In this document: in pieces, positions 1,421 to 35,381 of the stretch
Layout: each line of letters starts with the position of its first letter
Position numbering within the stretch: the stretch's first letter is position 1
Origin: a virus
Lineage: Duplodnaviria; Caudoviricetes
Direction: 5' to 3' (one strand)
DNA: 64,000 nt
IMG/VR virus record: IMGVR_UViG_3300009108_000480
Notes under the pieces: generated by a model
What the model saw: only the letters and a program-made list of their open reading frames with translations
Databases searched by the model: none
Told to the model about the DNA's origin: nothing
Position numbers and translations under genes: made by a program

Positions 1421-2158
1421 ATGAAAGATATCTTACAAGACATAGTTAAGCACACGCATGGACTAGGATTTTTAGATCTTGTCAAAATTTCCGGAGATGG
1501 TAGTGAAACTGCTATTGATTCAATGGCAGAAGACAGATCAGTTATCTTGCAAGGAACCTTTAACAAACCACAATCAGAAATGACTGGTACGTTTGGTATG
1601 CCTCAATTGAATAAATTAGATATTCACTTGAAGTGTCCTGAATATCAAGAAAAAGCAAAAATAACTGTAACAAAAGGCAACAGAAATAGTGCTGAAGTTC
1701 CAACAGGAATTCATTTTGAAAACGAAAAGGGAGACTTCAAAAACGATTACAGATTTATGAATGCTGAAATTATCAACGAAAAACTTAAAACAGTTAAGTT
1801 TAAGGGAGTTAAATGGGACGTTGAAATTGAACCAACCGTGGCGAGTGTACAAAGGTTTAACTTTCAATCTATTGCAAATACAGAACATAATTCTTTTGTT
1901 GTTAGAACAGAGAACAATAACCTGATATTTTCATTTGGTGATCAAGCATCACATGGTGGAGAATTTGTTTTTGCAAAAGGAGTGAAAGGAACTCTAAATA
2001 AAGGATGGAGTTGGCCTGTAGCACAGGTATTGCAAATACTGAAACTGTCGGATTCAGCAAAAGTTATATTACATTTCTCAAACGAAGGAGCAATGATGGT
2101 AACGGTTGATTCGGGGTTAGGCAAGTATCAATATATAATTCCAGCCCAGGCGCAATAA
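1421..2158 (+). CDS. Probable DNA polymerase sliding clamp (gp45/PCNA-like)
   Basis: 245 aa, beta-rich alternating pattern, next to the polymerase, C-terminal 'YQYIIPAQ'. Assigned from size, context and recalled resemblance. Confidence 0.55.
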   Translation: MKDILQDIVKHTHGLGFLDLVKISGDGSETAIDSMAEDRSVILQGTFNKPQSEMTGTFGMPQLNKLDIHLKCPEYQEKAKITVTKGNRNSAEVPTGIHFENEKGDFKNDYRFMNAEIINEKLKTVKFKGVKWDVEIEPTVASVQRFNFQSIANTEHNSFVVRTENNNLIFSFGDQASHGGEFVFAKGVKGTLNKGWSWPVAQVLQILKLSDSAKVILHFSNEGAMMVTVDSGLGKYQYIIPAQAQ

Positions 2159-3600
2159 TGGCAGAATATCGGCAAGAACATTTAGGCAAATTTAACAGAA
2201 ACTTTGCAGTGTTCTTGCCTGCAATTTCAAATTTTTACAATACATTTATATCCAGACAACGAACTACCAAAGGTAAACACATTCCAAAGGATAGAATTCC
2301 AAAAGGTTTTGATCAAGACGTTGAAGGTTTAAACTTCATTAATCCAGATAAAGGTTATTTTACATATCCAACTGCATTATATTCGGCAGGACACGCCTGT
2401 TTAGATATGGATAAAGTTACAGATAGAGATTCTATGTGTGTAAACAGAGATAGAAAGTTTAGCACAATAGTAGGTGATTCTGGTGGATATCAAATAGCAA
2501 AAGGTGTTATACAATTCGATTGGAAAGATTTCGAAGGAAATAAAGCAAATGCAGTTAGAAACAATATACTAAACTGGTTAGAACTTACATCAGATTGGGC
2601 AATGACATTAGACGTTCCAACTTGGGCGGCAGATGACTTAAACAAAGGAAAATCAGGATTAAACAGTTTTGAGGATTGTTTAAATGCTACAAAATTTAAT
2701 AATGATTACTTCCAAAAAAATAGACTTGGACAAACAAAATTCTTAAACGTACTACAAGGTGATGATTGGGAAACTGGAACAATTTGGTATGATCAAATGA
2801 AAAACTATAAGTTTGAAGGTTGGGCATTTGGTGGTATTAATATGTGTGATATGGAAATATTACTTAAAAGACTAATTGTAATGAGAGACGAAAAGCAATT
2901 AGACGGCAAAGATTGGATTCACATATTAGGCACATCACAATTAGACTGGGCTTGTTTCTTAACACAAATACAAAGACAACTAAAAAAACATATTAATCCA
3001 AATGTTACAATAAGTTTTGATTCAGCATCGGCATTTTTATCAGTTGCAAATGGATTAACATATACTCAAAATGTGTTTACTCCAAAACGATTTTCTTACA
3101 TTATGGATAAAGCACCAGATGACAAAAGATTAAAAGGATCTGATATTCCATTTCCATTTCAAAGTGCAATTGGTGATAGATTAACAATGGGAGATATTTG
3201 TAGGTATGGCGAAGGAGACCTAAATAAGAATAACAAAGAAGGTAAAACTGCTTGGGACAGTTTTAGCTATTGTTTATTAATGGCTCATAGTGTTTATAAT
3301 CATATTAAAGCAGTACAAGTTGCAAATGATTTAAATGATATTGAAAGTGTGGTACATAAACCACAAGTTAAACATTGGAGAAAAACTAAAGGACAAGACA
3401 ATACAGACGAATTTAGCAATTTTGTTCCAAGAAACATCTTATATTTTAATACATTAGTCGAAGAAGTGTTTACTTCTGAGAACCCAATGGAAGTTATTAA
3501 CAATGCTAAAAGTTTTCTAGCAGATATACGAGGTACACGATGGGCAAGACATACAGGGGGAGGAAAAGGTAAAAATAACTTTAGTTCATTATTTGAATAG
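2158..3600 (+). CDS. dpdA: TGT-family guanine transglycosylase, phage DpdA type (7-deazaguanine insertion)
   Basis: TGT motifs in order: GDSGGYQ, MTLDVP, VLQG, WAFGG, HILG, SFDS. The canonical CxCxxC zinc site is absent. folE, queE, queD-like and yhhQ are nearby. Confidence 0.8.
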   Translation: MAEYRQEHLGKFNRNFAVFLPAISNFYNTFISRQRTTKGKHIPKDRIPKGFDQDVEGLNFINPDKGYFTYPTALYSAGHACLDMDKVTDRDSMCVNRDRKFSTIVGDSGGYQIAKGVIQFDWKDFEGNKANAVRNNILNWLELTSDWAMTLDVPTWAADDLNKGKSGLNSFEDCLNATKFNNDYFQKNRLGQTKFLNVLQGDDWETGTIWYDQMKNYKFEGWAFGGINMCDMEILLKRLIVMRDEKQLDGKDWIHILGTSQLDWACFLTQIQRQLKKHINPNVTISFDSASAFLSVANGLTYTQNVFTPKRFSYIMDKAPDDKRLKGSDIPFPFQSAIGDRLTMGDICRYGEGDLNKNNKEGKTAWDSFSYCLLMAHSVYNHIKAVQVANDLNDIESVVHKPQVKHWRKTKGQDNTDEFSNFVPRNILYFNTLVEEVFTSENPMEVINNAKSFLADIRGTRWARHTGGGKGKNNFSSLFE

Positions 3601-3608
3601 GAGGATAT

Positions 3609-3848
3609 ATGACAGGTAAAGACAATTATCAAAAACATTTAAACCGACGCAAAGATAAAAAACTAAAAAAACTACTAGATCATCACGATTATCTAAATAG
3701 AAAAACCAAAGAATTAGACAAAGAACGAGGACATGGTGACAGAAGTGAAGAAAGCAAACAACTACTTTTAAGATTAAAAAAAACCAAATTAGCAATTAAA
3801 GACGAAATTACAAGAGTTACCGAAGAATTAAGCAAACTTACCAAATGA
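3609..3848 (+). CDS. Small basic coiled-coil hypothetical protein
   Basis: SD GAGGA upstream. 'LLLRLKKTKLAIKDEI' resembles the DUF465/YdcH pattern. Confidence 0.6.
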   Translation: MTGKDNYQKHLNRRKDKKLKKLLDHHDYLNRKTKELDKERGHGDRSEESKQLLLRLKKTKLAIKDEITRVTEELSKLTK

Positions 3849-3855
3849 AAATAGT

Positions 3856-3883
3856 TTGACAAAATAAAAGGATATGCTATAAT
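3856..3883 (+). promoter_or_regulatory. sigma70 promoter with extended -10
   Basis: TTGACA(3856-3861)-16 nt-TATAAT(3878-3883), preceded by TGn. ATG at 3891 is 7 nt downstream. Confidence 0.75.
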
Positions 3884-3890
3884 GCAAGTA

Positions 3891-4427
3891 ATGGAAAGAG
3901 ATTACAAAACCGGTGTAAAAAAAGATATTACAGTTTTCTCAGGTGTGGAAATTGAACACACACCAGCATATGGAAAACAAACATTATTTCTTGCTCGTAA
4001 TGATTTAACATTTGATCAAATACAAGAATGTGCTGTTATGGTGAATGCTGAAGCAATTTATTATGGTGCAAATAGAAGCTATATGCACAGCCAATTCATG
4101 CAAGTACCACAAATTATGAAATTTTTAGAACATGGTTATTATGTAACCGTAGATTATCCTTTTGAATTACACCAACTAGTTAGTCAAAAATTTGCATTGG
4201 TTTGGAAACATGAAAAGTTTATTCCATTTTGTTCAATTATAATGCCAGACTCAGAAGAAGATACATCATTATATTTTAAAATTGATGACGTTGATTTTAA
4301 TAAAACAAATCCCGGTGTATGGACAATGAGTATAAAAGACTTTAAAGATAAAGCAGGATTTACTAAATGGGATGATTATAAAAAAGATGAACCAATAGAG
4401 GAGAGTAAAATATGGTCAATGAGATGA
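3891..4427 (+). CDS. Hypothetical protein between dpdA and the QueD-like gene
   Basis: Good ORF. Start moved from 3882, which lies inside the -10 box, to 3891. Confidence 0.75.
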   Translation: MERDYKTGVKKDITVFSGVEIEHTPAYGKQTLFLARNDLTFDQIQECAVMVNAEAIYYGANRSYMHSQFMQVPQIMKFLEHGYYVTVDYPFELHQLVSQKFALVWKHEKFIPFCSIIMPDSEEDTSLYFKIDDVDFNKTNPGVWTMSIKDFKDKAGFTKWDDYKKDEPIEESKIWSMR

Positions 4428-4903
4428 AAAGCGAAGAATTAAGTATCAGTCAATTAGATGCAATAAGAGATAATGAATTAAACGAACAAAGAAATCAAGC
4501 ATTAAAGGAACGAGCAGGTAAGGCATCTAAAATGATTTGGGTAACCTTTCGTAAAGAAGGTATGCACAAATACCCAGCGGCATTAGAAGATCCAAAGTTA
4601 AAAACAGGTGATGAATATGACGTATCATTTTTAGGATATCCGCATAGGCATACATTTCATTTTAAAGTTGCAATAGAAGTATTTCATGATGATAGAGATA
4701 TTGAATTTATACAATTCCAAAGATGGATTTTAAGTTTATATAGTCAAGGCACTTTACAAAACGATTTTAAAAGTTGTGAAATGATGTCAGATGATTTATA
4801 CATTCAAATAACAAAAAAATATCCAGGCAGAAAAATTGAAATAGACGTTTCTGAAGATGGAGAAAATGGATCACACGCAGTTTATGAAAGAAATAACATT
4901 TAA
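4412..4903 (+). CDS. QueD-like T-fold protein with LxxxHRHxF motif (DpdL-type candidate)
   Basis: 'FLGYPHRHTFHF', 'DRDIEF', 'SCEMMSDDL'. CxxxHGH of canonical QueD is absent. SD GAGGAG upstream. Confidence 0.75.
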   Translation: MVNEMKSEELSISQLDAIRDNELNEQRNQALKERAGKASKMIWVTFRKEGMHKYPAALEDPKLKTGDEYDVSFLGYPHRHTFHFKVAIEVFHDDRDIEFIQFQRWILSLYSQGTLQNDFKSCEMMSDDLYIQITKKYPGRKIEIDVSEDGENGSHAVYERNNI

Positions 4904-5204
4904 AGAAAAAAGAGCAACAACAAGAATGGGTTATCTACCAATAGGTGGAGGAGGCTTAAATGCATCTTATACATTTGTAGATGCCGTTGCAAATATCTGT
5001 GCCACTGCAGGTAACCTAGGTATGATATATGGCAAAGATTTTATTTGGGCATATCATGGATATGACGCCGATAATGACGATTGTATTACACTAATGGTTA
5101 AAGAAGAAAAGTATGAAACTTTTTTACATTTAGCACTTAAAAATGATCACAAAATTAAGCATACCCAAAATGGTGATGCTATACTAGTTAAGTCATCTAA
5201 ATAA
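4857..5204 (+). CDS. Hypothetical protein
   Basis: ORF fills the gap between neighbours. True start is uncertain. Confidence 0.6.
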   Translation: MEKMDHTQFMKEITFKEKRATTRMGYLPIGGGGLNASYTFVDAVANICATAGNLGMIYGKDFIWAYHGYDADNDDCITLMVKEEKYETFLHLALKNDHKIKHTQNGDAILVKSSK

Positions 5205-5212
5205 CATGAATG
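5198..5212 (+). promoter_or_regulatory. Late-type box TAAATA-ACATGA-ATG
   Basis: 14 of 15 nt identical to 11891-11905. Confidence 0.5.
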
Positions 5213-6367
5213 TCACGCAAACTACTAGACAAAAATTTCTGTGTATTACCTTGGACAGGTTTTCAACTAGAACCTAACGGTATAGTAAAAAACTGCATCA
5301 TTGCTGAAGATACTATTGGCAATATACATCAAAATAGCATAGAAAACATTCTTCAATCAAAAAAGAATCTTGAGATTAAAACTCAAATGCTAAACAAAGA
5401 ATTTCCAAGTAATTGTAAAGGTTGCTATTTTCAAGAAGAAAATCGAGCAAAAAGTTTTGAAAGTATTAGTAGTCGACTATATTATGCAAAAGAATTAGGT
5501 CCGCACATTAGCAATAACTTATTAGATGATAAAAATAACTTTGATTTAAGTCATGTAGATCTTAGATGGAACAATAAATGCAATCAAGCCTGTGTTTATT
5601 GTAACTCTGATTACAGTAGTAAATGGGCACAAGAATTAAACATTAAACAAAAATTTGAAAAGAAAAATGTTGAAAAAGTAAAACAATATGTCTTTAAAAA
5701 TATTAAAAAATTAAAAAACATTTATCTTGCTGGAGGTGAACCTTTGCTTATGAACGATAATAAGGAGTTTCTAGAATTATTATTAAAACAAAATCCTGAT
5801 ATCCATTTAAGAGTAAACACAAATTTAAGTTCTACAGGAACAGGAGTGTTTCAATTGTTATGTCAGTTTAAAAATGTTCATTGGACTATAAGCATAGAAT
5901 CCATAGAAGAAGAATATGAATATATTAGATACCATAGTTCCTGGAATACTTTTTTAAAAAATTTACAACACATACAAACACTTAATCATAGAATTAGTTT
6001 TAATATGTTACATTTTATTCTAAACTATAAAAGCATTTTTAATTGCGTTGACTATTTAAAATCGTTAGGCTTTCACAACAATAATTTTATAATTGGACCA
6101 CTGTATGGACCTTTATTTTTGAACATTAAACATTTACCACAAAAAATATTAAATGAAGTTATTAATATTCTTAAAACCAAAATTAACGAAAAACCAGGAT
6201 TTTACCTACAAAATAGTTTGGAAAATATACTGAAGTATTTGACTGAACCCAATTTTTATGCTAATATAGAACTAGTACGTAGTAGAATAAAAAAAATGGA
6301 TGAGAGACGAAATTTAAATAGTAGGAAAATATTTCCAAAATTATATAAGGAAATGTTTAATGAGTAA
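5210..6367 (+). CDS. Radical SAM protein with N-terminal twitch/SPASM-like domain (#1)
   Basis: N-terminal FCVLPW...C...CKGC, core CNQACVYC, GGEP, NTN. Confidence 0.9.
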   Translation: MSRKLLDKNFCVLPWTGFQLEPNGIVKNCIIAEDTIGNIHQNSIENILQSKKNLEIKTQMLNKEFPSNCKGCYFQEENRAKSFESISSRLYYAKELGPHISNNLLDDKNNFDLSHVDLRWNNKCNQACVYCNSDYSSKWAQELNIKQKFEKKNVEKVKQYVFKNIKKLKNIYLAGGEPLLMNDNKEFLELLLKQNPDIHLRVNTNLSSTGTGVFQLLCQFKNVHWTISIESIEEEYEYIRYHSSWNTFLKNLQHIQTLNHRISFNMLHFILNYKSIFNCVDYLKSLGFHNNNFIIGPLYGPLFLNIKHLPQKILNEVINILKTKINEKPGFYLQNSLENILKYLTEPNFYANIELVRSRIKKMDERRNLNSRKIFPKLYKEMFNE

Positions 6368-6527
6368 ATGTAATTGTGGAAGATCACCTACAGGACTTTG
6401 TGTTGGTTGGCATTCTTTAACTGAAGAAAAATATAAAGAAAAGAAAAAGAAATATGAAAAAATGGAAGAAGAAAAAAAGAAAAAGAATCCCTTTCATGCA
6501 AGAGCAATTGATGGGTTTGGAGAGTAA
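6360..6527 (+). CDS. 55-aa CDGSH-like Fe-S/zinc-finger protein (absent from ORF track)
   Basis: My translation is MSKCNCGRSPTGLCVGWHSLTEEKY...GFGE*. ATG overlaps the radical SAM 3' end; the stop abuts the next ATG (TAAATG). Confidence 0.7.
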   Translation: MSKCNCGRSPTGLCVGWHSLTEEKYKEKKKKYEKMEEEKKKKNPFHARAIDGFGE

Positions 6528-7700
6528 ATGAAAATATTTTACATGGGCCTAGAGCCATACGAAGGCAGATATACATTACAATTAACTGATTGGACTGAAC
6601 GGGCTTTCAAAAATAGAGGTATCGATTATGTTATAGTACCTGGTACTACTATCGATGATTCCAAAGCAATTGTAACAGGACAAGTATTAGATGCACATGG
6701 ACGTTCATATTTTGGTATGAGTCAAATGATGAATTTAGTACAAATGATGAAAGCTGGTGAAATTACATCAAATGATATTATATTTTTTGAAGATATGTTT
6801 CAACCAGGTATAGAATCGTTACCATACATTATGAATCAATCACCAGCAGAATTTAGACCAAAAGTTTGGATAAGATGTTTAGCACAATCAATTGATCCTG
6901 ATGATTTTATACACGTATGGGATATGAGCAAATGGATGAGCTTATATGAAGCGATGTGCAATGAATTTGTAACAGGTGTATTAGCAACTAATGAAGAAAT
7001 GGTTGCACATATGAAAATTGCAAATTGGAAAGCACCAATTTATAACATATCAGGATTAAGTTTTGGCAAAGAAGAAGTACAAAATAGAGTAAAAGATATT
7101 AAACCTTTTGAAGAACGAACAATGCGAGTTGTTTTTGGTGCAAGATGGGATCAAGAAAAACAACCAGGTTTCTTTATGGATATGATTGACCATTGGCAAC
7201 AAAATAAAAAATTGCCTCCAGTTGAATTTTGTATCTGCGTAGGTGGACCTTTAAGAAGTAATAACAAAGTATATGTAGACAGGGCAAGACGAATGGAAAA
7301 AGAAGGCACACTTACAATATATGAAAATTTAAAAAAGAATCAATATTACAACATACTTGCAGATTCAAGAGTATTATTTAATTGTGCGTTACAAGATTGG
7401 ACATCCAATACTGTATCAGAAGCAGATTCATTAGGTTGTAATGTACTATTTCCAGCATACAGAACATTTCCTGAAGTTTTTGCAAACGACGAAACAAGAA
7501 TGTATGTTCCGTGGAGTGGCAGAGATGCAATGGAAAAACTAAAAGTATTATTAATGAAACCATCCCCTAGTATGGGTCAAATATCTGATTGGACTGACGG
7601 TACAATAGACAGAATGATTGACATTATGACAGGCACGGGAGAACAATGGAGAAGAGATGGAAAACACTACAGAACACCAGTTTCCGAATCTAAATATTAA
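6528..7700 (+). CDS. GT-B (GT4-like) glycosyltransferase
   Basis: 'ARWDQEKQP', 'LFNCALQDWTSNTVSEADSLGC' (Ex7E-like region), 'YRTFPEVF'. 390 aa. Confidence 0.75.
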   Translation: MKIFYMGLEPYEGRYTLQLTDWTERAFKNRGIDYVIVPGTTIDDSKAIVTGQVLDAHGRSYFGMSQMMNLVQMMKAGEITSNDIIFFEDMFQPGIESLPYIMNQSPAEFRPKVWIRCLAQSIDPDDFIHVWDMSKWMSLYEAMCNEFVTGVLATNEEMVAHMKIANWKAPIYNISGLSFGKEEVQNRVKDIKPFEERTMRVVFGARWDQEKQPGFFMDMIDHWQQNKKLPPVEFCICVGGPLRSNNKVYVDRARRMEKEGTLTIYENLKKNQYYNILADSRVLFNCALQDWTSNTVSEADSLGCNVLFPAYRTFPEVFANDETRMYVPWSGRDAMEKLKVLLMKPSPSMGQISDWTDGTIDRMIDIMTGTGEQWRRDGKHYRTPVSESKY

Positions 7701-8691
7701 ACCAATTGGATCCTGTGTATTAGTAACAGGAGGAGCTGGATATATTGGCTCACACACCTGTAAAATATTAAAGAAAAATGGATTCACTCCAATAACTATT
7801 GATAGACATATTGAAAGGTTTGGTCATGCAACATTTGGCCCACATTTTCAAGTTGACCTACCTAAAAATCAAAGTTATCTAAACGAAATAATTAAAAGAT
7901 ACGATATACAATCTTGCATACACTTTGCTGGTAGTGCCTCAGTTGGTGAATCTGTAAAAGATCCAAGCAAGTATTATAAAAATAATGTAATAACTACAAT
8001 GGCTCTGCTTGATCAATTAGTACAAAATAATATTAAAACATTTATATTTTCATCAAGTGCGGCTGTATATGGCGATCCCGGAAATCGAAAATGTAGAGAA
8101 GATCGCGGACCAAATCCAATTAACCCATATGGTGTTACAAAATTAATAGTAGAAAGAATGCTTATGGATTATAAAACAGCATATGGCATTTCATCGGTAA
8201 GTTTAAGATATTTTAATGCCGCAGGTGCTGATCCAGAGGAAGAAATTGGAGAATCAAGAACCAAAGAAACTCATTTAATTCCATTGGCCATTAACGCATC
8301 AAGACAATTAAAAACATTTTATATAAATGGCGATAAATTTCCTACAGAAGATGGAACGTGTGTAAGAGATTATGTTCATGTTATGGACCTAGCCGACGCA
8401 CACATTAAGGCTTTAAATTATGCAAATAAAAATTCAGTATGTGAACAAATTAATTTAGGATCAGGTATACCTATTTCTAACAAACAATTATTAGACATCA
8501 TACAAAAACATACCGGTAAAATGGACATAATTGTAAGAGATGGTAGACAAGGAGATCCGGCATATCTTGTAGCTGATATTTTCAAAGCTAAAAAAATATT
8601 AAATTGGTCTCCTACACAAAGTTCTATTGACAATATAGTGGCAACTGCTGTAAAATGGTATAATAAAATACATAAAAAAGAAATACAATAA
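7657..8691 (+). CDS. galE: UDP-glucose 4-epimerase
   Basis: VTGGAGYIGSH, HFAG, SSSAAVYG, YGVTK (YxxxK), LRYFNAAGA, CVRDYVHVMDLADAH. Confidence 0.93.
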   Translation: MENTTEHQFPNLNIKPIGSCVLVTGGAGYIGSHTCKILKKNGFTPITIDRHIERFGHATFGPHFQVDLPKNQSYLNEIIKRYDIQSCIHFAGSASVGESVKDPSKYYKNNVITTMALLDQLVQNNIKTFIFSSSAAVYGDPGNRKCREDRGPNPINPYGVTKLIVERMLMDYKTAYGISSVSLRYFNAAGADPEEEIGESRTKETHLIPLAINASRQLKTFYINGDKFPTEDGTCVRDYVHVMDLADAHIKALNYANKNSVCEQINLGSGIPISNKQLLDIIQKHTGKMDIIVRDGRQGDPAYLVADIFKAKKILNWSPTQSSIDNIVATAVKWYNKIHKKEIQ

Positions 8692-9404
8692 TGGATGATA
8701 CATTAAAAGATAGTTGGGATAATACACATGATCCAATTAGCAAACAAATAAAACAAAGAATTAAAAAAGCAGGAAAAAGATTTCACTGTAATGATAATAT
8801 TTCTGAATACATTGAAGATGGTGATTTAGAACAATTACAAGCAGAAGTACAAGAAAAATTACAAGGTGTATTAGAAAGTCTTGTAATTGATACAGAAAAC
8901 GATCACAATACACAGGAAACTGCAAAACGTGTCGCTAAAATGTATGTACAAGAAACATTTGGTGGCAGATATAAACCGTTTCCGAGAGTTACAAGTTTTC
9001 CTAATGTGGGTTACAAGAGTATGTACACTAGTGGTCCAATTAGTATTAAGTCAACGTGTGCTCACCATTTACAAAATATTGTAGGTAATGCTTGGGTAGG
9101 TATTATTCCAACTGGCAAAGTTATTGGTTTGAGTAAGTTTAACAGAATTATACATCACATTGTAGAAAGACCACAGATACAAGAAGAAATGACAACACAA
9201 ATTGCTGATGCATTAAAAGAATACGCACACACAACTCATATTGCAGTAGTAGTTAAAGCAGAACATCATTGTATGACACACAGAGGCGTAAGAGAACAGG
9301 AATCTGATATGACAACTGCAATTATGTTAGGTGCATTTAAAGATGACCCAGCAACTAGAGATGAATTTTATAAAATTTGCATGAGCATGAAGGGCCATGC
9401 ATAA
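8691..9404 (+). CDS. folE: GTP cyclohydrolase I
   Basis: ETAKRVAKMY, STCAHH, GLSKFNRI, RPQIQE, EHHCMTHRGVR. Confidence 0.95.
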   Translation: MDDTLKDSWDNTHDPISKQIKQRIKKAGKRFHCNDNISEYIEDGDLEQLQAEVQEKLQGVLESLVIDTENDHNTQETAKRVAKMYVQETFGGRYKPFPRVTSFPNVGYKSMYTSGPISIKSTCAHHLQNIVGNAWVGIIPTGKVIGLSKFNRIIHHIVERPQIQEEMTTQIADALKEYAHTTHIAVVVKAEHHCMTHRGVREQESDMTTAIMLGAFKDDPATRDEFYKICMSMKGHA

Positions 9405-10063
9405 TGAATAATGAACTTCGAAAGAGGTCATTTATAGAGTTAGACGTAGAAATCGATTTCGAAAAACTTTTACAAGAGTATCATATCATAGACAAGAAGT
9501 ATGCTTTCCACAATTACAATACAAATTACTGGGCAGTAAGAAAAAAATATGCTAAAAGTTGGTCTGGTGTATGCCTGACAAGTTCTGATGGAAGTCTATA
9601 CACTGATCTACATGAAAATAGACGAGATATTCCTTTTATAGATACAGAAATAAAAAAACATTGTCCATACATTTACAAATTAATAAAAGATCTAGGCGGC
9701 GACAAATGTAGTGCAAGAATCATGAGGATTTCCCCAAAAGAATCTTTAGTATGGCATAGCCACGTGCAAGAGCACGGACAAGAAGAGAATCAACTTACAG
9801 TGCAAATACCTATAATAGTACCAAAACAATTTGAATATTGTGTGGTTAACAAGAACGAATTTAAATGGTACAAAAGATTTTTTAGACCTTCATGGTTTAA
9901 AAATGCCGAATGCAAAAGACTTGAGACGGGTAAAGCATATATTTTCAATTCCTATCATTACCATAATGTATATAATCATAGCAACGAATATAGAATAACG
10001 TTAATGTTATATCTTGACTTACGAAACCCAACAGTTTATAATTTGGTACAAAGAAGTTTATGA
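9404..10063 (+). CDS. Asp/Asn beta-hydroxylase-like double-stranded beta-helix oxygenase
   Basis: 'ARIMRISPKESLVWHSH...IPIIVP...GKAYIFNSYHYHNVYN..RI'. Start taken as ATG 9404, overlapping the folE stop. Confidence 0.65.
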   Translation: MNNELRKRSFIELDVEIDFEKLLQEYHIIDKKYAFHNYNTNYWAVRKKYAKSWSGVCLTSSDGSLYTDLHENRRDIPFIDTEIKKHCPYIYKLIKDLGGDKCSARIMRISPKESLVWHSHVQEHGQEENQLTVQIPIIVPKQFEYCVVNKNEFKWYKRFFRPSWFKNAECKRLETGKAYIFNSYHYHNVYNHSNEYRITLMLYLDLRNPTVYNLVQRSL

Positions 10064-10266
10064 AAAAAGGAAAAAAATTAACATTTAAGAAAAAAGTATG
10101 GAAAATTTTAGATGGAACTTATAAAAGACCTATAGATCAAGAAGACGTTGATAGACTAGTAGCGGCAGTACAACAAGAAATAATGTTAGATACTAGAGAT
10201 GTGGAAACGATGGACGCAATTAATGATGGTAAAATAGACTGGAGCGGAAATGCCACCAAAAAGTAA
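10060..10266 (+). CDS. Hypothetical protein
   Basis: ATGA overlap with upstream gene. Confidence 0.6.
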   Translation: MKKGKKLTFKKKVWKILDGTYKRPIDQEDVDRLVAAVQQEIMLDTRDVETMDAINDGKIDWSGNATKK

Positions 10267-10603: not shown

Positions 10604-10850
10604 AGATTTATTAGAAGATGTTAAAGCATATCGTAATACAATGGTTGCTAGAAATTTCCCACATCAAGAAATTACAAACCTTATTATAAAATGGGATCAA
10701 AAACTTCTAGAAGATACACCCGAATACAAACAACGTAAAGAAAGAGAAGCAAAGGAAAAACAGTTAGAAGAATTTAAAAAAAGAGAACAAGAAGAACAAG
10801 AAAATTTAGAAAAAATAGCCAAAGAAGCAAGAGAGGAAGATGCGTCTTAA
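10593..10850 (+). CDS. Hypothetical protein with charged coiled-coil tail
   Basis: Overlaps both neighbours by about 11 nt. Confidence 0.65.
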   Translation: MEIKDLLEDVKAYRNTMVARNFPHQEITNLIIKWDQKLLEDTPEYKQRKEREAKEKQLEEFKKREQEEQENLEKIAKEAREEDAS

Positions 10851-11889
10851 TACTGAACTTAAATTAAATTATGCAGATGTTTTGTTACAACCAAAACGTT
10901 CAACATTATCTTCTCGAAAAGATGTTGACATAGAAAGAACATTTACATTTCAAAATTCAAAAGAAACTTATACGTGTGTTCCTATTGTAGCATCTAATAT
11001 GGATGGCGTTGGTACATTTAGTATGGCTAAAGTATTACAGGAATATAAAATGATGACTGTAATAACAAAAACAACAACACCTGAGCAATGGAAACAAGCC
11101 GTAGGACAAGGAATAAAATTAAAATACATATCTGTATGTACAGGTACAGGAAAACTTTGGGATAAAGACGCAGAAGATTATGCCACAATGCAACAAATAT
11201 TAAAAAGTTATCCAGATGTTAAATTTATTACAATTGACGTTGCAAATGGGTATCATGAAAATTATGTAGACTTTGTCGAAAAAGTAAGAGAAGAGTTTCC
11301 TGACAAAACTATAATTGCAGGTAACGTTGTTACTGCAGAAATGGTTGAGCAATTAATTATTAGTGGTGCTGATGTAGTAAAAATTGGTATAGGACCAGGA
11401 TCAGTATGTACAACAAGAACAATGGCTGGTGTAGGTGTTCCACAATTTTCAGCGGTAGTAGAATGTGCTGATGCGGCCAACGGTGTTGGAGGACACATAA
11501 TGGCTGATGGTGGTTGTGTAGAACCAGGTGATGTAGCAAAAGCATTTGGTGGCGGTGCACATTTTGTTATGCTAGGTGGTATGTTAGCAGGACACAATGA
11601 ATCAGAGTTGCCAGTTGTAGATGGAGAAAGAGAATTTTATGGTATGAGTTCTGATAGAGCAAGAGAAATACACGGTAAAAGAAAAGATGGATATAGAGGT
11701 AACGAAGGACGAAGAGTATTTTTACCTGACAGAGGACCTGTATCAGAAACAATTGAAGATATGTTAGGTGGAGTAAGATCCGCTTGTACATATATTGGTG
11801 CAAGAAGATTAAAGGATATACCTAAATGTGCAAGTTTTGTTAGAACAAACAATCCAATTAATAAAGTTTACGACCAATACGAAGATTAA
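10840..11889 (+). CDS. guaC: GMP reductase
   Basis: LNYADVLLQPKRS, SNMDGVG, IDVANGY, KIGIGPGSVCTTR (catalytic Cys), ADGGC, FYGMSS, GGVRSACTYIGA. Confidence 0.95.
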   Translation: MRLNTELKLNYADVLLQPKRSTLSSRKDVDIERTFTFQNSKETYTCVPIVASNMDGVGTFSMAKVLQEYKMMTVITKTTTPEQWKQAVGQGIKLKYISVCTGTGKLWDKDAEDYATMQQILKSYPDVKFITIDVANGYHENYVDFVEKVREEFPDKTIIAGNVVTAEMVEQLIISGADVVKIGIGPGSVCTTRTMAGVGVPQFSAVVECADAANGVGGHIMADGGCVEPGDVAKAFGGGAHFVMLGGMLAGHNESELPVVDGEREFYGMSSDRAREIHGKRKDGYRGNEGRRVFLPDRGPVSETIEDMLGGVRSACTYIGARRLKDIPKCASFVRTNNPINKVYDQYED

Positions 11890-11890
11890 T

Positions 11891-11905
11891 TAAATATCAT
11901 GAATG
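11891..11905 (+). promoter_or_regulatory. Late-type box TAAATA-TCATGA-ATG
   Basis: 14 of 15 nt identical to 5198-5212. Confidence 0.5.
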
Positions 11906-13054
11906 ATACCGAACAAAAATACATTCTGCGTTGCACCTTTTAATAGTCTTTATGTAGGTCCAACTGGCAGTATTACCCCTTGTTGTCTTTTCGACAAACC
12001 AACAAAATATAAATTTCACGAAACTGAAGACTATTATCATTCTAAAGATCTGAATAAAGTAAGAAATAATTTAATTAACGGTATTAAAGATACCAACTGT
12101 ATTGCGTGTTGGAAACAAGAAGAAGCTAATGGTGATTCATTAAGATTAATATTAAACAGAACTGTTGGAAAAGATATTACTCAAGCAATTAATAATTTAG
12201 ATACAAAAAATATAAAAAGTTTTGACTTACAGCTTGGAAATTTATGTAATTTAAAATGCGTTATGTGTTCACCAAAGTGGAGTAGTCAAATACTTGCTGA
12301 GATAAACATAAATCAAGAAATGAAAAAATTTTATAAACATGGCAATTTGAAACAAAACGAATTTAATTGGCCAAAAGAAAACGATTTTGCAAAATGGTGT
12401 GAAAAATTTTTACCACAAAGTATACATATCAAATTAACTGGGGGCGAACCCTTCATAAATCCGTGGCTGTTCAAAACATTAGAAAACATACCAACAAGTC
12501 AAAAAGAAAAATGTATTCTTCACTTTACTACAAACCTAACAATAATTAATGACAAAATATTAAACATACTTAAAAAATTTAAAGAAACATGGATTAGTGT
12601 ATCTGTTGATGGCATAGAAGATACTTTTGAATATATTAGATTTGGCCATACTTGGAATGCTATTAAAAAAAATATAGACACATTATTAAATGTTAAAGAA
12701 AACATAAAATTATCAATTAACTGTGTAATACAAGCACCAATACTACCTAATATTGTTAATATGGTAAATTATTTTGATACTAAAAAAATAAAAATAAGAC
12801 CTATTATACTAACATCACCAAAAAAACTAACACTTTCTTCTTTAAAAGAACAATTTAAAAATAATATTATAAAAGATCTACAAAATTATAAAGGATATAA
12901 TCAAGAATTTATTGACGTTGTTAAATCAGTAATTAAAGATAATATAAATCACGACAATGAATTAGCTCAAGAATGTGTGCATTACCTAGATAATATTGAC
13001 AAAATACGAAACACTAATTTTAAAAACATTATTCCGGTTGATTGTTTTATATGA
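11903..13054 (+). CDS. Radical SAM protein with N-terminal twitch domain (#2)
   Basis: FCVAPF...PCC...CIACW, core CNLKCVMC, TGGEP. Confidence 0.9.
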   Translation: MIPNKNTFCVAPFNSLYVGPTGSITPCCLFDKPTKYKFHETEDYYHSKDLNKVRNNLINGIKDTNCIACWKQEEANGDSLRLILNRTVGKDITQAINNLDTKNIKSFDLQLGNLCNLKCVMCSPKWSSQILAEININQEMKKFYKHGNLKQNEFNWPKENDFAKWCEKFLPQSIHIKLTGGEPFINPWLFKTLENIPTSQKEKCILHFTTNLTIINDKILNILKKFKETWISVSVDGIEDTFEYIRFGHTWNAIKKNIDTLLNVKENIKLSINCVIQAPILPNIVNMVNYFDTKKIKIRPIILTSPKKLTLSSLKEQFKNNIIKDLQNYKGYNQEFIDVVKSVIKDNINHDNELAQECVHYLDNIDKIRNTNFKNIIPVDCFI

Positions 13055-14564: not shown

Positions 14565-14581
14565 TTAAACTTAAAAGTGTA

Positions 14582-14610
14582 TTGATTTAATTCACAAATT
14601 GTCGTACAAT
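14582..14610 (+). promoter_or_regulatory. sigma70-type promoter of yhhQ
   Basis: TTGATT(14582-14587)-17 nt-TACAAT(14605-14610). SD AGGAGG at 14633-14638. Confidence 0.65.
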
Positions 14611-14642
14611 AGTGAACATTTAATAATATCCTAGGAGGATTA

Positions 14643-15305
14643 ATGTTAGATTTATTAAAAAACGTAGACAAAAGTATGCTGTGGAAACTTGTAGCACTTC
14701 ACGTTATCGTGATTACAGTTTCAAACGGTTTAGTAAACATTCCTGTAGAAATACTTGGAGTTAAACTAACCTGGGCGGCATTCACTTTCCCTTTAGTAGT
14801 AATAGCAACTGACTTAACAGTCAGACTATTGGGTAAAACGATAGCACGGTCTACAATTGCAATAGCCTATCCACTTGCGATCATTGGATCCATTTTGGTA
14901 GTGCTGGCAGAAGGAGCACCTCAATCAGTTGCGTTAAGAATTGGTTTTGCAAGTGCGACTGCGTATGCAATTGGAACTTTGCTAGATGTATATGTCTTCC
15001 AATGGCTGAGAGAAAATTATTCAGCTTGGTGGTTAGCACCTGCAGTATCAACTGTGGTAGCAAACATAATTGACACATACACATTCTTCTTTACAGCATT
15101 CTCAGGTGGCGCCAACGAGTATATGGCGGCTAACTGGGCAGAAATTGCCGGTTCACAAACTGTATTAAAAATTATGGTTGGTTTGATAGTATTCTTACCA
15201 GCTTATGGTTTATTACTTAGACATTTGTCGGGTAAATTTAAAGTTAGTGCAACTGTACAAAAAGCATTTAAAGATGCAAGTAAAGACCTAGTAAAATCAA
15301 AATAA
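14643..15305 (+). CDS. yhhQ: Queuosine-precursor (preQ0/preQ1) transporter, YhhQ/VUT family
   Basis: About six hydrophobic helices. 'TWAAFTFPLVVIATDLTVRLLG', 'RIGFASATAY', 'ANIIDTYTFFFTAF', 'QTVLKI'. Confidence 0.9.
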   Translation: MLDLLKNVDKSMLWKLVALHVIVITVSNGLVNIPVEILGVKLTWAAFTFPLVVIATDLTVRLLGKTIARSTIAIAYPLAIIGSILVVLAEGAPQSVALRIGFASATAYAIGTLLDVYVFQWLRENYSAWWLAPAVSTVVANIIDTYTFFFTAFSGGANEYMAANWAEIAGSQTVLKIMVGLIVFLPAYGLLLRHLSGKFKVSATVQKAFKDASKDLVKSK

Positions 15306-15318
15306 AATTGATTTATTT

Positions 15319-15360
15319 TCAATAGGGGGTATTTTTTTACCCCCTGTTGATATTTCATTT
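15319..15360 (+). terminator. Intrinsic terminator after yhhQ
   Basis: CAATAGGGGGTA / TACCCCCTGTTG 12-bp stem (one G-U), T6 loop, followed by TATTTCATTT. Confidence 0.75.
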
Positions 15361-15370
15361 AAATATTGGT

Positions 15371-17836: not shown

Positions 17837-17845
17837 TTATATAAT
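17817..17845 (+). promoter_or_regulatory. Consensus sigma70 promoter
   Basis: TTGACA(17817-17822)-17 nt-TATAAT(17840-17845). ATG at 17852 is 6 nt downstream. Confidence 0.85.
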
Positions 17846-17851
17846 AACACT

Positions 17852-18241
17852 ATGTCGAATATAGCAGGAAAAATTTGGGGATCTACAGAACTTATCCTAG
17901 CAAATAGTTCACTTGAATTTCACAGAATAGATTTTAAAAAAGGTGGTGTGTGTTCTAAGCACAAACACAAATACAAATGGAATGGTTTTTATTGTATGTC
18001 GGGAAAAATGAAAATCCGCATATGGCAAACAGCATATGATCTAGTTGATGAAACAATATTAGAACCCGGAAATTTTACCGCAGTTAAACCTGGACTATAC
18101 CATTCCTTTGAGGGTTTACAAGATGGAGTTGCTTTTGAATTATATTGGGCAAATTTTGATCACAGCGATATTGAAAGAGAATCTGTAGGCCATCTTAAAG
18201 AAAGAGACAACGTGGTTAGACTCGACAAGAAGAAAAGATAA
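17852..18241 (+). CDS. Cupin-fold protein
   Basis: 'CSKHKHKYKWNGF' and 'VKPGLYHSFE', the two cupin His motifs. Confidence 0.8.
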   Translation: MSNIAGKIWGSTELILANSSLEFHRIDFKKGGVCSKHKHKYKWNGFYCMSGKMKIRIWQTAYDLVDETILEPGNFTAVKPGLYHSFEGLQDGVAFELYWANFDHSDIERESVGHLKERDNVVRLDKKKR

Positions 18242-18348
18242 TGTCTGATGAAATGGAAAAGAAAATTAATGGTAATTGGACCATTAAAGAAATAATAGAA
18301 GCCATGAAAACATTATGTCCAGAAGCCTGGATTGACCAATCTAAATAA
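18241..18348 (+). CDS. 35-aa micro-ORF (absent from ORF track)
   Basis: MSDEMEKKINGNWTIKEIIEAMKTLCPEAWIDQSK*. TAATG-coupled to the cupin gene. Confidence 0.5.
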   Translation: MSDEMEKKINGNWTIKEIIEAMKTLCPEAWIDQSK

Positions 18349-18360
18349 TTATAGTATAAT
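18332..18360 (+). promoter_or_regulatory. sigma70 promoter of queE
   Basis: TTGACC(18332-18337)-17 nt-TATAAT(18355-18360). ATG at 18366 is 5 nt downstream. A TAAATA also lies at 18342-18347. Confidence 0.75.
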
Positions 18361-18365
18361 ATAAT

Positions 18366-19253
18366 ATGGAGAAAATTAGGTACTCTGAAATATTTAGAAG
18401 CATACAAGGTGAGGGTCGTTTTGCAGGCGTACCAAGTGTATTTTTTAGAACATTTGGTTGTAATTTTCACTGTCATGGATTTGGACAAGGCAGAGATAAA
18501 AGCAAATGGCTTAAACCAGAAGAAATGCCATATGCTACAATGGATCTTACAAATATTAAACACGTTAAAGACTTACCAGTAGTAGACATTGGTTGTGATG
18601 CTAGTGCCAGTTGGGCGGCAAGATACAAACATCTTGTAGATTGGGATCCGGTTGATGTTATTGCTAAAAAAATATTAAGTCATACACCAGAAGGCAAGTG
18701 GATTTCTTCTACCGGACAAGACATACATCTTGTTATAACAGGTGGCGAACCCTTAATGTGGCAAAGACAATTAGAAGCATTAATAAGACAACCTGAATTT
18801 CGTTTCATAAAAAATATTACATTTGAAACTAATTGTACACAACCATGGAAAGATAATTTTGACAAATTTATGCACGGTTTAACTGCTGGTGATTATACAA
18901 AACATCCAGTTCACGTAACTTGGTCTACATCACCTAAACTATCTATATCAGGAGAGCATTGGGCAAAAGCAATACGTCCTGAAGTTGCTTACCAATATTC
19001 ACAAATACCAAACACACATTTATACTTTAAATTTGTGGTAATGGATGAACAAGATATAGAAGAAGTTGATTTAGCAAGAAAGGCTTTTTCTGACAAAGGA
19101 ATAGAAGCTGACATATATCTTATGCCACTAGGAGCAACGTTAGAAGGACAGGCAAAAACTGGTAGACAAGTAGCGGAAATTTGTTTAAAATATGGATATA
19201 AGTTTTCGCCAAGATTACACGTAGATTTGTTTGGTAATAAATGGGGAACTTAA
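18366..19253 (+). CDS. queE: 7-carboxy-7-deazaguanine synthase (radical SAM)
   Basis: EIFRSIQGEG, VFFRTFGCNFHC...GCD, VITGGEP, FETN, SPKLS, FKFVV, YLMP, SPRLHVDLFG. Confidence 0.93.
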   Translation: MEKIRYSEIFRSIQGEGRFAGVPSVFFRTFGCNFHCHGFGQGRDKSKWLKPEEMPYATMDLTNIKHVKDLPVVDIGCDASASWAARYKHLVDWDPVDVIAKKILSHTPEGKWISSTGQDIHLVITGGEPLMWQRQLEALIRQPEFRFIKNITFETNCTQPWKDNFDKFMHGLTAGDYTKHPVHVTWSTSPKLSISGEHWAKAIRPEVAYQYSQIPNTHLYFKFVVMDEQDIEEVDLARKAFSDKGIEADIYLMPLGATLEGQAKTGRQVAEICLKYGYKFSPRLHVDLFGNKWGT

Positions 19254-35276: not shown

Positions 35277-35381
35277 TTATTTGTATATAAAAGGGTCTTT
35301 TTTCTTTAGTTCTTTTAATCTTTTACGATAAGCAAATTCTTGCTTAATCTTTTTGATTAAATTTTTTAACCAACTAAACAT
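35277..35381 (-). CDS. 34-aa basic micro-protein (absent from ORF track)
   Basis: MFSWLKNLIKKIKQEFAYRKRLKELKKKDPFIYK*. SD GGAGG upstream; stop abuts the next ATG. Confidence 0.7.
   Translation of the reverse strand: MFSWLKNLIKKIKQEFAYRKRLKELKKKDPFIYK

Follow-up and report, generated by a model that had tools for sequence, protein, structure and literature searches.

A QueC-less, DpdL-type 7-deazaguanine gene module with a linked glycosyltransferase and GalE in an uncultured giant phage: candidate for a sugar-bearing DNA base

Genes of the locus

The window, i.e., the whole stretch of 64,000 nucleotides that was analysed (IMG/VR record IMGVR_UViG_3300009108_000480), comes from an uncultured marine giant phage, which is abundant and whose complete relatives have genomes of about 350 kb. 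It contains a deazaguanine module set among replication genes (Table 1). An earlier note, made from the letters of the sequence, had listed nine genes here, and all nine are open frames on the plus strand at the positions tabulated. Six of them (GalE, FolE, YhhQ, the QueE-like enzyme, the cupin and the 2OG-type oxygenase) were recognized by HMM, and the three calls that had no HMM support (the 480-aa, the “QueD-like” and the 390-aa proteins) were checked by fold, motif and family, which placed each of them, one under a new name.

Table 1. Features of the module and its surroundings (positions in the window)
Position	Strand	Feature	Evidence and remarks
1421..2158	+	Clamp-like neighbour	phrog_12062, 2.1e-39; called sliding clamp in the earlier note; one base in common with the transglycosylase gene
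2158..3600	+	DpdA-like transglycosylase, 480 aa, TGT fold; predicted base-exchange enzyme	Fold, motifs
3856..3883	+	Sigma-70-type promoter match, 12/12 + TG extension	Consensus only; just 5′ of the 3882 gene
3882..4427	+	Conserved protein, 181 aa, just upstream of DpdL	69/80 related loci
4412..4903	+	DpdL, T-fold paralog of QueD; proposed CDG decarboxylase	Motif, phrog_17812
4857..5204	+	Small ORF, 115 aa, lineage-specific	12 close relatives only; no family match
5210..6367	+	Radical SAM protein, N-terminal twitch domain	NF033640, 264 bits vs cut-off 170
6360..6527	+	Cys-rich ORF, 55 aa, between radical SAM gene and GT	Open frame; 1 other locus only
6528..7700	+	GT-B, GT4-like glycosyltransferase (GT), 390 aa; DpdL-linked family	Predicted fold, family profile
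7657..8691	+	UDP-glucose 4-epimerase GalE	TIGR01179, 334.5 bits vs cut-off 262.3
8691..9404	+	FolE, GTP cyclohydrolase I, first step towards 7-deazaguanines	PF01227, 162 bits, 1.2e-47
9404..10063	+	Asp/Arg beta-hydroxylase-like oxygenase	PF05118, 40.4 bits, 3.4e-10
10840..11889	+	GMP reductase / IMPDH-family enzyme	PF00478, 233 bits; conserved in 14 related loci
11903..13054	+	Second radical SAM protein, N-terminal twitch domain	NF033640, 293 bits
14643..15305	+	YhhQ-type transporter of queuosine precursors	TIGR00697, 108 bits vs cut-off 51
17852..18241	+	Small cupin, lineage-specific	PF07883, 26.3 bits, just under cut-off 27.2; 11 close relatives
18366..19253	+	QueE-like radical SAM enzyme (CDG synthase)	phrog_2076, 1.6e-53

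DpdA enzymes have the fold of the tRNA-guanine transglycosylases (TGT). The 480-aa protein was matched by no Pfam or NCBIfam model and by no TGT HMM; its predicted structure (AF2, pLDDT 88.7) found only tRNA-guanine transglycosylases among its top 50 PDB matches (E ~3e-8) and only TGT among its top 30 Swiss-Prot matches. It carries the motifs GDSGGYQ (residues 106-112) and FDSAS (287-291), in which D107 and D288 are invariant, and is 40% identical to EST35_0316 of phage PA5oct. A conserved CxCxxC zinc motif is lacking in the DpdA-like protein, which, like the missing TGT HMM match, counts against the pathway proposed below. PA5oct and 76 of the 80 related viral loci have the clamp-like gene adjoining the DpdA-like one.

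The protein encoded at 4412, which the earlier note had called QueD-like, is DpdL and not QueD, because it carries LxxxHRHxF (here LGYPHRHTF), the sequence defined as the DpdL signature (PMC10516641). The motif is invariant in 22 homologs (L74, H78, R79, H80 and F82), and the protein is 55% identical to those of ACP17 and PA5oct and 32% identical to CGPG_00067 of phiST. The 181-aa protein encoded just before it also occurs in ACP17 (ASD50402, 32% identity) and found no match in Pfam, PDB or Atlas, also when a 26-sequence profile was used. Promoter-like sites such as the one in front of this gene were, over the region as a whole, no more numerous than expected by chance. The radical SAM gene at 5210, which separates DpdL from the GT, is an insertion specific to the lineage and was seen in nine related loci.

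The 390-aa protein is predicted to be of the GT-B fold (AF2, pLDDT 94.9), with PimA, BshA, MshA and GlgM as its best Foldseek matches (E ~1e-11). PF00534 is matched by 47 of 63 members of the family, which comprises 829 clusters at 50% identity and whose profile could be aligned with WlaC and GlgM over the region where these bind the donor. The family keeps the Arg, Lys and Glu residues of donor binding: R206, E210 and K211 do not vary, and E298 is found in at least 90% of its members. The GT gene overlaps galE by 44 nt, and TAATG junctions connect GalE with FolE and FolE with the oxygenase, so that the gene coupling claimed in the earlier note for these four genes is real. The oxygenase call and its coupling to FolE stood, too; its membership in the conserved module did not, because a homolog was missing from all 83 loci compared. 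It is probably a passenger gene, to judge from these loci.

Farther downstream, the GMP reductase/IMPDH-family enzyme possibly recycles guanine nucleotides. The YhhQ protein scored 185 bits with NF008406, under the cut-off of 252 for that model; behind its gene there is a strong hairpin terminator (15319-15350). In three related loci (L019, L021 and L058), a YhhQ gene lies directly 3′ of the GT. The N-terminus of the QueE-like protein matches QueE equivalog models, and the protein shares 31% identity with a PA5oct gene product annotated as 7-carboxy-7-deazaguanine synthase. No canonical QueD was found within the window; by analogy with the closest relative, its gene probably lies upstream. QueD was present in all three complete relatives, in which neither QueC above the cut-off nor a Pfam-type TGT was found, and the base is therefore taken to derive from 7-carboxy-7-deazaguanine (CDG).

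Linkage of the glycosyltransferase with DpdL and DpdA

The GT is tightly and repeatedly linked with DpdL and DpdA. In a set of 80 GT-bearing IMG/VR loci, which were the top hits by GT similarity and belong largely to one broad clade, so that the common gene order is in part common descent, the same order was found with DpdL in 77, a DpdA-like gene in 76, GalE in 69 and FolE in 61. The GT also adjoins DpdL in six cultured lineages (the PA5oct group, Phosso, ACP17, BUDD/X1, BCSR5 and BUCT-ZZ01) and in seven of seven metagenome contigs with DNA, in which the GT is only 28-36% identical. The backbones include a RecT/ParB-carrying phage, jumbo phages and a cyanophage, and no family member with a family-profile score above about 120 bits is encoded more than about 3 kb away from DpdL, the distance being 1.5 kb or less in most cases. 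Recurrence in many other phages takes the arrangement far beyond chance. A spread of the GT independent of dpdA, for which the earlier note had proposed to look, was not seen: every member that could be inspected adjoins DpdL, near a DpdA-type gene, in several backbones. The same linkage places the GT and GalE in the deazaguanine module rather than in a virion glycan pathway, as that note had favored.

The DpdA partner varies, with at least three unrelated-looking types in GT contexts: the 480-aa type; a type of 416-437 aa with DSGGLQ, present in ACP17, BUDD and BUCT-ZZ01, with which the 446-aa BCSR5 protein (DSGGFQ) was grouped; and a 300-aa type with LDSGAH and SVDS. In 47 of 67 related loci, the GT has a GalE as its immediate neighbour, and 8 of 10 sampled neighbours passed the GalE cut-off; the pairing extends across the giant-phage group. 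When the proteins of the module are compared within the same genomes, the GT stands out as the most conserved, its median identity being 69% vs 40% (DpdA-like protein) and 51% (clamp-like neighbour). DpdL loci with no GT within 9 kb were found in RHph_I1_18, Ahp1, Bakedbeans and D479. Because such GT-less DpdL pathways exist and phiST makes a plain base (see below), the GT looks like an optional tailoring step.

Comparison with known systems and a proposed pathway

Cellulophaga phage phiST encodes FolE, QueD, QueE, DpdL and DpdA3, and its product is plain dDG (2′-deoxy-7-deazaguanosine) (Cui, Hutinet et al., NAR 2023, PMC10516641). It has in common with the module here FolE, QueE, a DpdL with LxxxHRHxF, the absence of QueC and a TGT-superfamily transglycosylase adjoining the synthesis genes; since FolE, QueE and DpdL are present and QueC is missing in both, the base should come from CDG and not from preQ0. 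In contrast, phiST has no GT or GalE, whereas here a GT4-family enzyme and GalE are placed between DpdL and FolE, and no sequence similarity was detected between the phiST DpdA3 (259 aa) and the 480-aa protein. The Pseudomonas jumbo phage PA5oct has a module (EST35_0314-0322) of near-identical gene order, with homologs of the clamp-like gene, the 480-aa transglycosylase (40%), the GT (EST35_0317), DpdL (55%) and QueE, but no full-length GalE. PA5oct DNA is restriction-resistant at G-containing sites and the phage is a target of nucleases that sense modified G (PMC12191111); the module genes are annotated as hypothetical.

The stretch has, in our estimation, about an even chance of being a QueC-less, DpdL-type 7-deazaguanine DNA-modification module with an added sugar-tailoring step. 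In the proposed pathway, for which the action on DNA, the kind of sugar, the acceptor atom and the sequence of the steps are predictions, FolE and the QueE-like enzyme, together with a QueD whose gene is outside the window, would convert GTP to CDG, and DpdL would then turn CDG into a 7-deazaguanine-type base, a decarboxylation having been proposed by its discoverers (PMC10516641). The 480-aa TGT-fold enzyme would swap guanine in the phage DNA for this base, and the GT4-like glycosyltransferase would add a hexose to the deazaguanine, probably from UDP-galactose supplied by the adjoining GalE, either on the free base prior to insertion or on the base already in the DNA. The predicted outcome is virion DNA with a sugar-bearing 7-deazaguanine that resists restriction. 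An unsubstituted 7-deazaguanine offers no obvious hydroxyl handle, which counts against this pathway; N2, C7 or a retained C7 substituent would be possible attachment points. The oxygenase is the only one in the window and yet is unconserved, which counts against the pathway as well, and so do the DpdL pathways that work with no such GT.

No published description of a glycosylated deazaguanine in DNA was found, and the pathway, if true, would add a phage DNA with a sugar-bearing purine, for which no paper was found. Galactosyl- and mannosyl-queuosine of animal tRNA carry a hexose on a 7-deazaguanine derivative in a nucleic acid; they differ in that the nucleic acid is tRNA and not DNA, that the sugar is on the cyclopentenediol of queuosine, and that the phage here has no queuosine-making genes. 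HuiG of Kutzneria albida, which acts in huimycin biosynthesis, is a precedent for a GT that acts on a 7-deazapurine base: it transfers a sugar from UDP-GlcNAc to a 7-deazapurine made by FolE, QueD, QueE and QueC-type genes, its acceptor being the O-methylated preQ0 free base (10.64898/2026.04.15.718813). Its secondary-metabolite cluster, unlike the module here, has no enzyme for insertion into nucleic acid, and the comparison with the phage GT is by description. The alpha- and beta-glucosyltransferases of T4 are likewise phage-encoded GT-B enzymes that use a nucleotide-sugar donor and protect DNA from host nucleases (PMC13216743), but T4-type enzymes act on the hydroxyl of 5-hydroxymethylcytosine or 5-hydroxymethyluracil, whereas the acceptor here is presumably a purine analogue. 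No gene for making a hydroxymethyl-pyrimidine was seen in the annotated region (1-22.6 kb), and a cyanophage DNA alpha-GT ranked only 50th (TM 0.54) among viral structural models compared with the GT4-like enzyme.

Alternative roles

In structure, the GT comes closest to enzymes that glycosylate small molecules (BshA, MshA, SenB, LmbT and GlgM), not to DNA glycosyltransferases, and the acceptors of its closest structural relatives are malate, inositol phosphate, selenophosphate, ergothioneine and glucose-1-phosphate. These matches count against the proposed pathway and speak for an alternative in which the GT belongs to the deazaguanine pathway but acts on a soluble small molecule only, giving a transient glycosylated intermediate required for the DpdL step or a free, huimycin-like glycosylated 7-deazapurine, and the DNA contains dDG or a similar base with no sugar. 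This alternative, which appears rather unlikely, is also favored by the glycosylation of a free 7-deazapurine by HuiG and by the constant partner of the GT being DpdL, predicted to act on a free base (PMC10516641), while the DpdA type varies. Moreover, dpdL and dpdA of ACP17 alone did not yield dDG in E. coli, and Cui et al. raised the possibility that more enzymes are required (PMC10516641); this result speaks for the tailoring pathway proposed above, too. Against it, phiST makes dDG with DpdL and without such a GT, so that the GT is dispensable for the DpdL reaction as such; a secreted antimetabolite would be of no evident use to a lytic phage, and the module is surrounded by replication genes.

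It is distinctly improbable that the GT and GalE serve an unrelated task (virion protein glycosylation, host envelope sugars or another modified base) and are neighbours of the pathway only through the clustering of early and DNA-metabolism genes. The window does contain a separate, large sugar-tailoring locus on the minus strand (~29.5-46 kb; DegT, a carbamoyltransferase and five radical SAM proteins), and Xanthomonas phage PhiXhv-15 has a distant GT4 relative that is accompanied by GlmS and a deacetylase instead of DpdL. The PhiXhv-15 protein is, however, an outlier with only 76 bits against the family profile, whereas the members above about 120 bits are all near DpdL in several backbones, and the GT is translationally coupled into the gene string that runs from the 3882 gene and DpdL to GalE and FolE.

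The earlier note had left open that the transglycosylase acts on tRNA, in which case the product of the module would be a queuosine-like tRNA base with a sugar, akin to those of animals; this has very little probability, for although all fold matches are tRNA enzymes and YhhQ transporters salvage the precursors of tRNA bases, the window has no tRNA gene, QueC, QueF and the enzymes of the later queuosine steps are missing, the transglycosylase gene is joined to replication genes like phage dpdA genes, every phage known to have 7-deazaguanine DNA encodes a DpdA-type protein (PMC10516641), and the restriction resistance at G sites is a property of PA5oct DNA itself. Since the DNA of PA5oct, which encodes a homolog of the 480-aa protein, is protected from restriction at sites with G, the transglycosylase is, by analogy, most likely a DNA enzyme. 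The proposal of a sugar-bearing deazaguanine in phage DNA is testable, since PA5oct, with both the module and the restriction-resistant G sites, is a cultured phage.

Gene content of the run and identity of the glycosyltransferase

Over its first 20 kb, the window consists of a single long run of plus-strand genes with very few gaps. Six gene calls that an earlier note, made without database searches, had placed there were confirmed by HMMs, i.e., GalE, FolE, the oxygenase, YhhQ, the cupin and the QueE-like enzyme (see the table), and the coupled junctions were as it had described: a 44-nt overlap joins the gene of the 390-aa glycosyltransferase (GT) to that of GalE, and TAATG is common to the GalE/FolE and the FolE/oxygenase junctions. 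The promoter match lies directly 5′ of the gene for o3882, a protein of 181 aa, and a strong hairpin terminator follows YhhQ on its 3′ side. The two radical SAM proteins with twitch domains are paralogs embedded in the deazaguanine cluster. The 480-aa, 163-aa and 390-aa proteins found no informative family in Pfam, NCBIfam or PHROGs. No enzyme making 5-hydroxymethyl-dC or -dU was found among the 30 plus-strand frames scanned between 596 and 22579, and the constant neighbours of the GT are deazaguanine genes, not hydroxymethyl-pyrimidine enzymes.

Features of the window, with positions in nucleotides and the profile evidence for each
Feature	Position	Strand	Evidence
Clamp-like gene	1421-2158	+	phrog_12062
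DpdA-like (TGT-fold) protein, 480 aa	2158-3600	+	
Sigma-70-type promoter match	3856-3883		perfect, 12/12
o3882, 181 aa	3882-4427	+	
DpdL, 163 aa	4412-4903	+	
Radical SAM, N-terminal twitch domain	5210-6367	+	NF033640, 264 bits
GT, 390 aa	6528-7700	+	
GalE (UDP-glucose 4-epimerase)	7657-8691	+	TIGR01179 equivalog, 334.5 bits vs cut-off 262.3
FolE	8691-9404	+	PF01227, 1.2e-47, 162 bits
Asp/Arg-hydroxylase-like oxygenase	9404-10063	+	PF05118, 3.4e-10
GMP reductase/IMPDH-family gene	10840-11889	+	
Radical SAM, N-terminal twitch domain	11903-13054	+	NF033640, 293 bits
YhhQ	14643-15305	+	TIGR00697 over cut-off
Small cupin	17852-18241	+	HMM match just below cut-off
QueE-like radical SAM enzyme	18366-19253	+	phrog_2076, 1.6e-53
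Separate sugar-tailoring locus	29464-46091	minus	
DegT-type aminotransferase, same locus	30782-31876	minus	
NodU/CmcH-type carbamoyltransferase, same locus	33388-34842	minus	

The window stretch was found in marine metagenomes from many studies, and megablast of 24 kb of it against cultured phages gave no match. Because related IMG/VR contigs with terminal repeats reach 343–353 kb and 100-kb fragments are rated ~28% complete, the phage counts as a giant phage, with a genome of ~350 kb.

Clustered at 50% identity, the family of the GT comprises 829 clusters (exhaustive search). An AlphaFold model built from a 63-member alignment (pLDDT 94.9) has the two Rossmann domains of the GT-B fold, and its best matches in the PDB are the GT4-type enzymes PimA, BshA, MshA, GlgM, SenB and LmbT (Foldseek E = 4e-12 for PimA, ~1e-11 for BshA and GlgM, and 3e-11 for MshA). 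The window protein itself stays below the cut-off of PF00534 (E = 0.014, 15.4 bits, cut-off 26.4); this model is matched by 47 of the 63 family members, the best at 4.5e-10. R206, E210 and K211 are invariant in the alignment and E298 is present in at least 90% of members, and the family profile places these four residues on matching regions of WlaC and GlgM. Judged from the alignment, the C-terminal domain has thus kept the Arg, Lys and Glu that putatively bind the donor (R206, K211 and E298). The GT-B assignment of the earlier note is in this way borne out by the predicted fold, the PF00534 matches of other family members and the donor-binding residues. A reading of the 390-aa protein as a DpdA3-type transglycosylase was rejected, the fold being clearly GT-B.

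Linkage of the glycosyltransferase to deazaguanine genes

Among 80 IMG/VR loci carrying the GT, DpdL was found in 77, the DpdA-like protein in 76, the clamp-like gene in 76, o3882 in 69, GalE in 69 and FolE in 61, in the same order, which partly reflects common descent since the loci are the best matches by GT similarity and largely form one broad group. Of the 67 loci that have both genes, 47 have GalE directly next to the GT, and eight of ten sampled GT-adjacent GalE homologs pass the equivalog cut-off of TIGR01179. In three loci (L019, L021 and L058, at ~11180) a gene for YhhQ, 77–79% identical to that of the window, takes the position of GalE directly 3′ of the GT. The GT is the best-conserved protein of the module, with a same-genome median identity of 69% versus 40% for the transglycosylase, the former value being somewhat inflated by the choice of loci by GT similarity.

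More independent evidence for the linkage than that of the related giant phages comes from cultured phages. The GT lies beside DpdL in six cultured lineages, namely the PA5oct group, Phosso (Sinorhizobium, the hosts being those in the phage names), ACP17 (Acidovorax), BUDD/X1 (Xanthomonas), BCSR5 (Burkholderia) and BUCT-ZZ01 (Synechococcus); in PA5oct the module includes the transglycosylase EST35_0316, the GT (0317), DpdL (0318) and QueE (0322). Nine divergent members of the GT family, 28–36% identical to the window GT, were also inspected. In all seven of their contigs with nucleotide sequence a DpdL match lies ~1.5 kb or less from the GT, those of sufficient length also have QueD, FolE or QueE-like genes nearby, and the other two follow the same pattern, with small flanking genes or a PTPS/radical SAM/FolE trio nearby. 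The contexts of the GT are diverse, e.g., a phage contig carrying RecT and ParB, and so are the transglycosylases near it, among which at least three types can be told apart: that of 480 aa, one of 416–437 aa with DSGGLQ (with which the 446-aa protein of BCSR5, with DSGGFQ, was grouped) and one of ~300 aa with LDSGAH and SVDS.

The sole exception to the linkage is a distant GT4 protein of Xanthomonas phage PhiXhv-15, which scores 76 bits against the family profile, the other members scoring 124–490 bits, and which is treated as the nearest outgroup of the family. It sits (L102, 6747-9981) with GlmS and an LmbE/BshB-type deacetylase in a BshA/BshB-like trio, and the locus has no deazaguanine genes. 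A GT family spread independently of dpdA, which the earlier note had named as counter-evidence to its sugar-decorated deazaguanine base, was not seen; the GT sits with DpdL/DpdA-type genes across phage contexts, and we consider it probable that it works in the deazaguanine pathway.

Two further arrangements were observed. On the metagenome contig of P0360, two GT genes lie close together (7165-8136, whose 323-aa product matches PF00534 weakly, and 9001-10125, encoding a 374-aa family member), with a PTPS, radical SAM and FolE trio 4–6 kb downstream; the pairing hints at a disaccharide in some lineages. On the contig that carries RecT and ParB (L089, 11464-12692), two genes with ParB_N domains lie 3′ of a UDG–DpdL–GT–DpdA-like string, separated from it by one small ORF, and recall DpdB, the ParB-like partner of bacterial DpdA.

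DpdL, the transglycosylase and the proposed sugar-bearing base

DpdL, a proposed decarboxylase of 7-carboxy-7-deazaguanine (CDG), was defined by Cui et al. by a change of the QueD motif CxxxHGH to LxxxHRHxF (PMC10516641). The 163-aa protein, which the earlier note had called QueD-like, is instead DpdL, because its LGYPHRHTF (residues 74–82, invariant in 22 homologs) fits that motif and because it is homologous to DpdL of phiST (32% identity, E = 2e-8); its counterparts in ACP17 and PA5oct share 55% identity with it. Its family profile found no match among PDB sequences. A tblastn search of all 64 kb of the window, seeded with two phage QueD proteins, found no QueD itself (PTPS, PF01242); it is present in all three complete relatives and, in the closest relative, lies 42 kb upstream of the GT, which would correspond to a position before the window start. 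The three relatives (99–100% complete) contain no QueC over cut-off, and five contig fragments of close relatives gave a single partial match of 24.8 bits in a 270-aa frame; the pathway would therefore halt at CDG. The three complete relatives also contain no Pfam-type tRNA-guanine transglycosylase (TGT), which leaves the 480-aa family as the sole transglycosylase candidate.

The 480-aa protein and its 28 homologs match neither PF01702 nor any other Pfam or NCBIfam model, their profile found no match among PDB sequences, and member-by-member Pfam scans of this family, of DpdL and of o3882 gave matches at chance level only. A structural model from a 28-sequence alignment of related loci (pLDDT 88.7) found TGT in all of its top 50 PDB and top 30 Swiss-Prot structural matches (probability 1.00, TM 0.37–0.55). 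The protein carries GDSGGYQ with the invariant D107 and FDSAS with the invariant D288, whose likeness to the catalytic Asp residues of TGT was judged from the motifs. The zinc motif CxCxxC is absent from the sequence, C348 being the sole invariant Cys, and H377 is invariant as well. The model thus places the protein, as a very divergent member, in the TGT/DpdA superfamily, to which only its fold links it, and the dpdA/TGT call of the earlier note holds at the level of the fold but not at that of HMMs.

The pathway that we propose builds on the gene identities and the linkage, which the analysis shows, and infers DNA as the target, which sugar is added, to which atom, and in what order the steps run. 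In it, FolE, QueD and QueE would make CDG, DpdL would turn it into a 7-deazaguanine-type base, and the TGT-fold enzyme would swap this base for guanine in DNA. The GT would add a hexose, probably galactose supplied through GalE, either before or after insertion. The linkage of the GT to the DpdL and DpdA genes speaks for the sugar on the inserted base that the earlier note had proposed, whereas two weak points of the mechanism speak against it: plain 7-deazaguanine has no hydroxyl for attachment of the sugar, and the enzymes that most resemble the GT in structure have small molecules as their substrates. That a sugar-bearing deazaguanine ends up in virion DNA is, in our view, close to an even call. 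The full proposal, i.e., that a dedicated GT4-family enzyme, together with DpdL and a DpdA-type transglycosylase, gives rise to a hexosylated, probably galactosylated, 7-deazaguanine in the virion DNA of the window phage, PA5oct, ACP17, BUCT-ZZ01, Phosso, BUDD and BCSR5, is put forward tentatively, as falling a little short of that.

To our knowledge, the glycosylated bases of DNA are all pyrimidines (glucosyl- and arabinosyl-hydroxymethylcytosine, base J and glycosylated 5-hydroxycytosine), and full-text searches found no literature report of a glycosylated 7-deazaguanine in DNA. If real, the base would be the first sugar-bearing purine analogue known from any DNA and would add a new chemical class, one based on a purine, to the natural modifications of DNA. 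A precedent exists in huimycin biosynthesis, where HuiG glycosylates a 7-deazapurine base with UDP-GlcNAc (10.64898/2026.04.15.718813).

The paper of Cui et al. makes no mention of a glycosyltransferase; their expression of dpdL and dpdA of phiST and ACP17 in E. coli yielded no 2′-deoxy-7-deazaguanosine (dDG), and they suggest that other enzymes may be required (PMC10516641). The absent GT step might explain the failure with ACP17; the same attempt failed for phiST, which naturally has no GT. DNA of PA5oct resists restriction at G sites and the phage is targeted by nucleases specific for modified G, according to passages of PMC12191111 in which no nucleoside analysis of PA5oct was found. This resistance may lend indirect support, from a relative, to deazaguanine in virion DNA, and the proposal in turn bears on the modified G of PA5oct, a therapeutic jumbo phage. 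With 829 clusters and thousands of marine sequences in the GT family, the modification would be common in ocean viromes, with possible consequences for restriction, CRISPR and glycosylase defences, for sequencing chemistry and for nanopore base-calling. As several cultured phages have the module, the question is directly open to mass spectrometry.

Pathways lacking the glycosyltransferase, and accessory genes

The locus of phiST, a phage in which dDG was measured (PMC10516641), contains QueD, QueE, FolE, MazG, DpdL and DpdA3 and lacks the GT. Likewise, no GT was found within 9 kb of DpdL in RHph_I1_18, Ahp1, Bakedbeans and D479. Since DpdL pathways occur without it, the GT looks like a tailoring step that a DpdL pathway may or may not have acquired, which fits a secondary decoration. 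Rows lacking the GT are scattered in the DpdL tree, which is poorly resolved (four label changes, many long branches) and cannot date gains or losses of the GT. In Vibrio phage Bakedbeans, DpdL forms the C-terminal half of the 383-aa protein gp176 (L100, 8245-9396), the DpdL profile matching residues 264–391 of a 394-residue open frame after ~250 preceding residues.

None of the 83 loci compared carries a homolog of the oxygenase; by this distribution the enzyme lies outside the core module, and the idea that it supplies the hydroxyl to which the sugar is attached was rejected on the same count. The twitch radical SAM genes (the first of which is inserted between DpdL and the GT), the cupin, an SGNH-like gene and small ORFs are confined to close relatives. 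A candidate for an extra module component is o3882, which is found just 5′ of DpdL in 69 of the 80 related loci and in ACP17. Its family found no match in Pfam, PDB sequences (profile search) or the Atlas, and has 20 invariant residues, e.g., G21, E23, E25, G62-A63-N64, K133 and D135-D136.

The separate sugar-tailoring locus may serve a virion glycan or a DNA-linked sugar. Besides the aminotransferase and the carbamoyltransferase it encodes five radical SAM proteins; in several of these, an N-terminal SPASM/twitch domain resembles that of the pair in the deazaguanine cluster.
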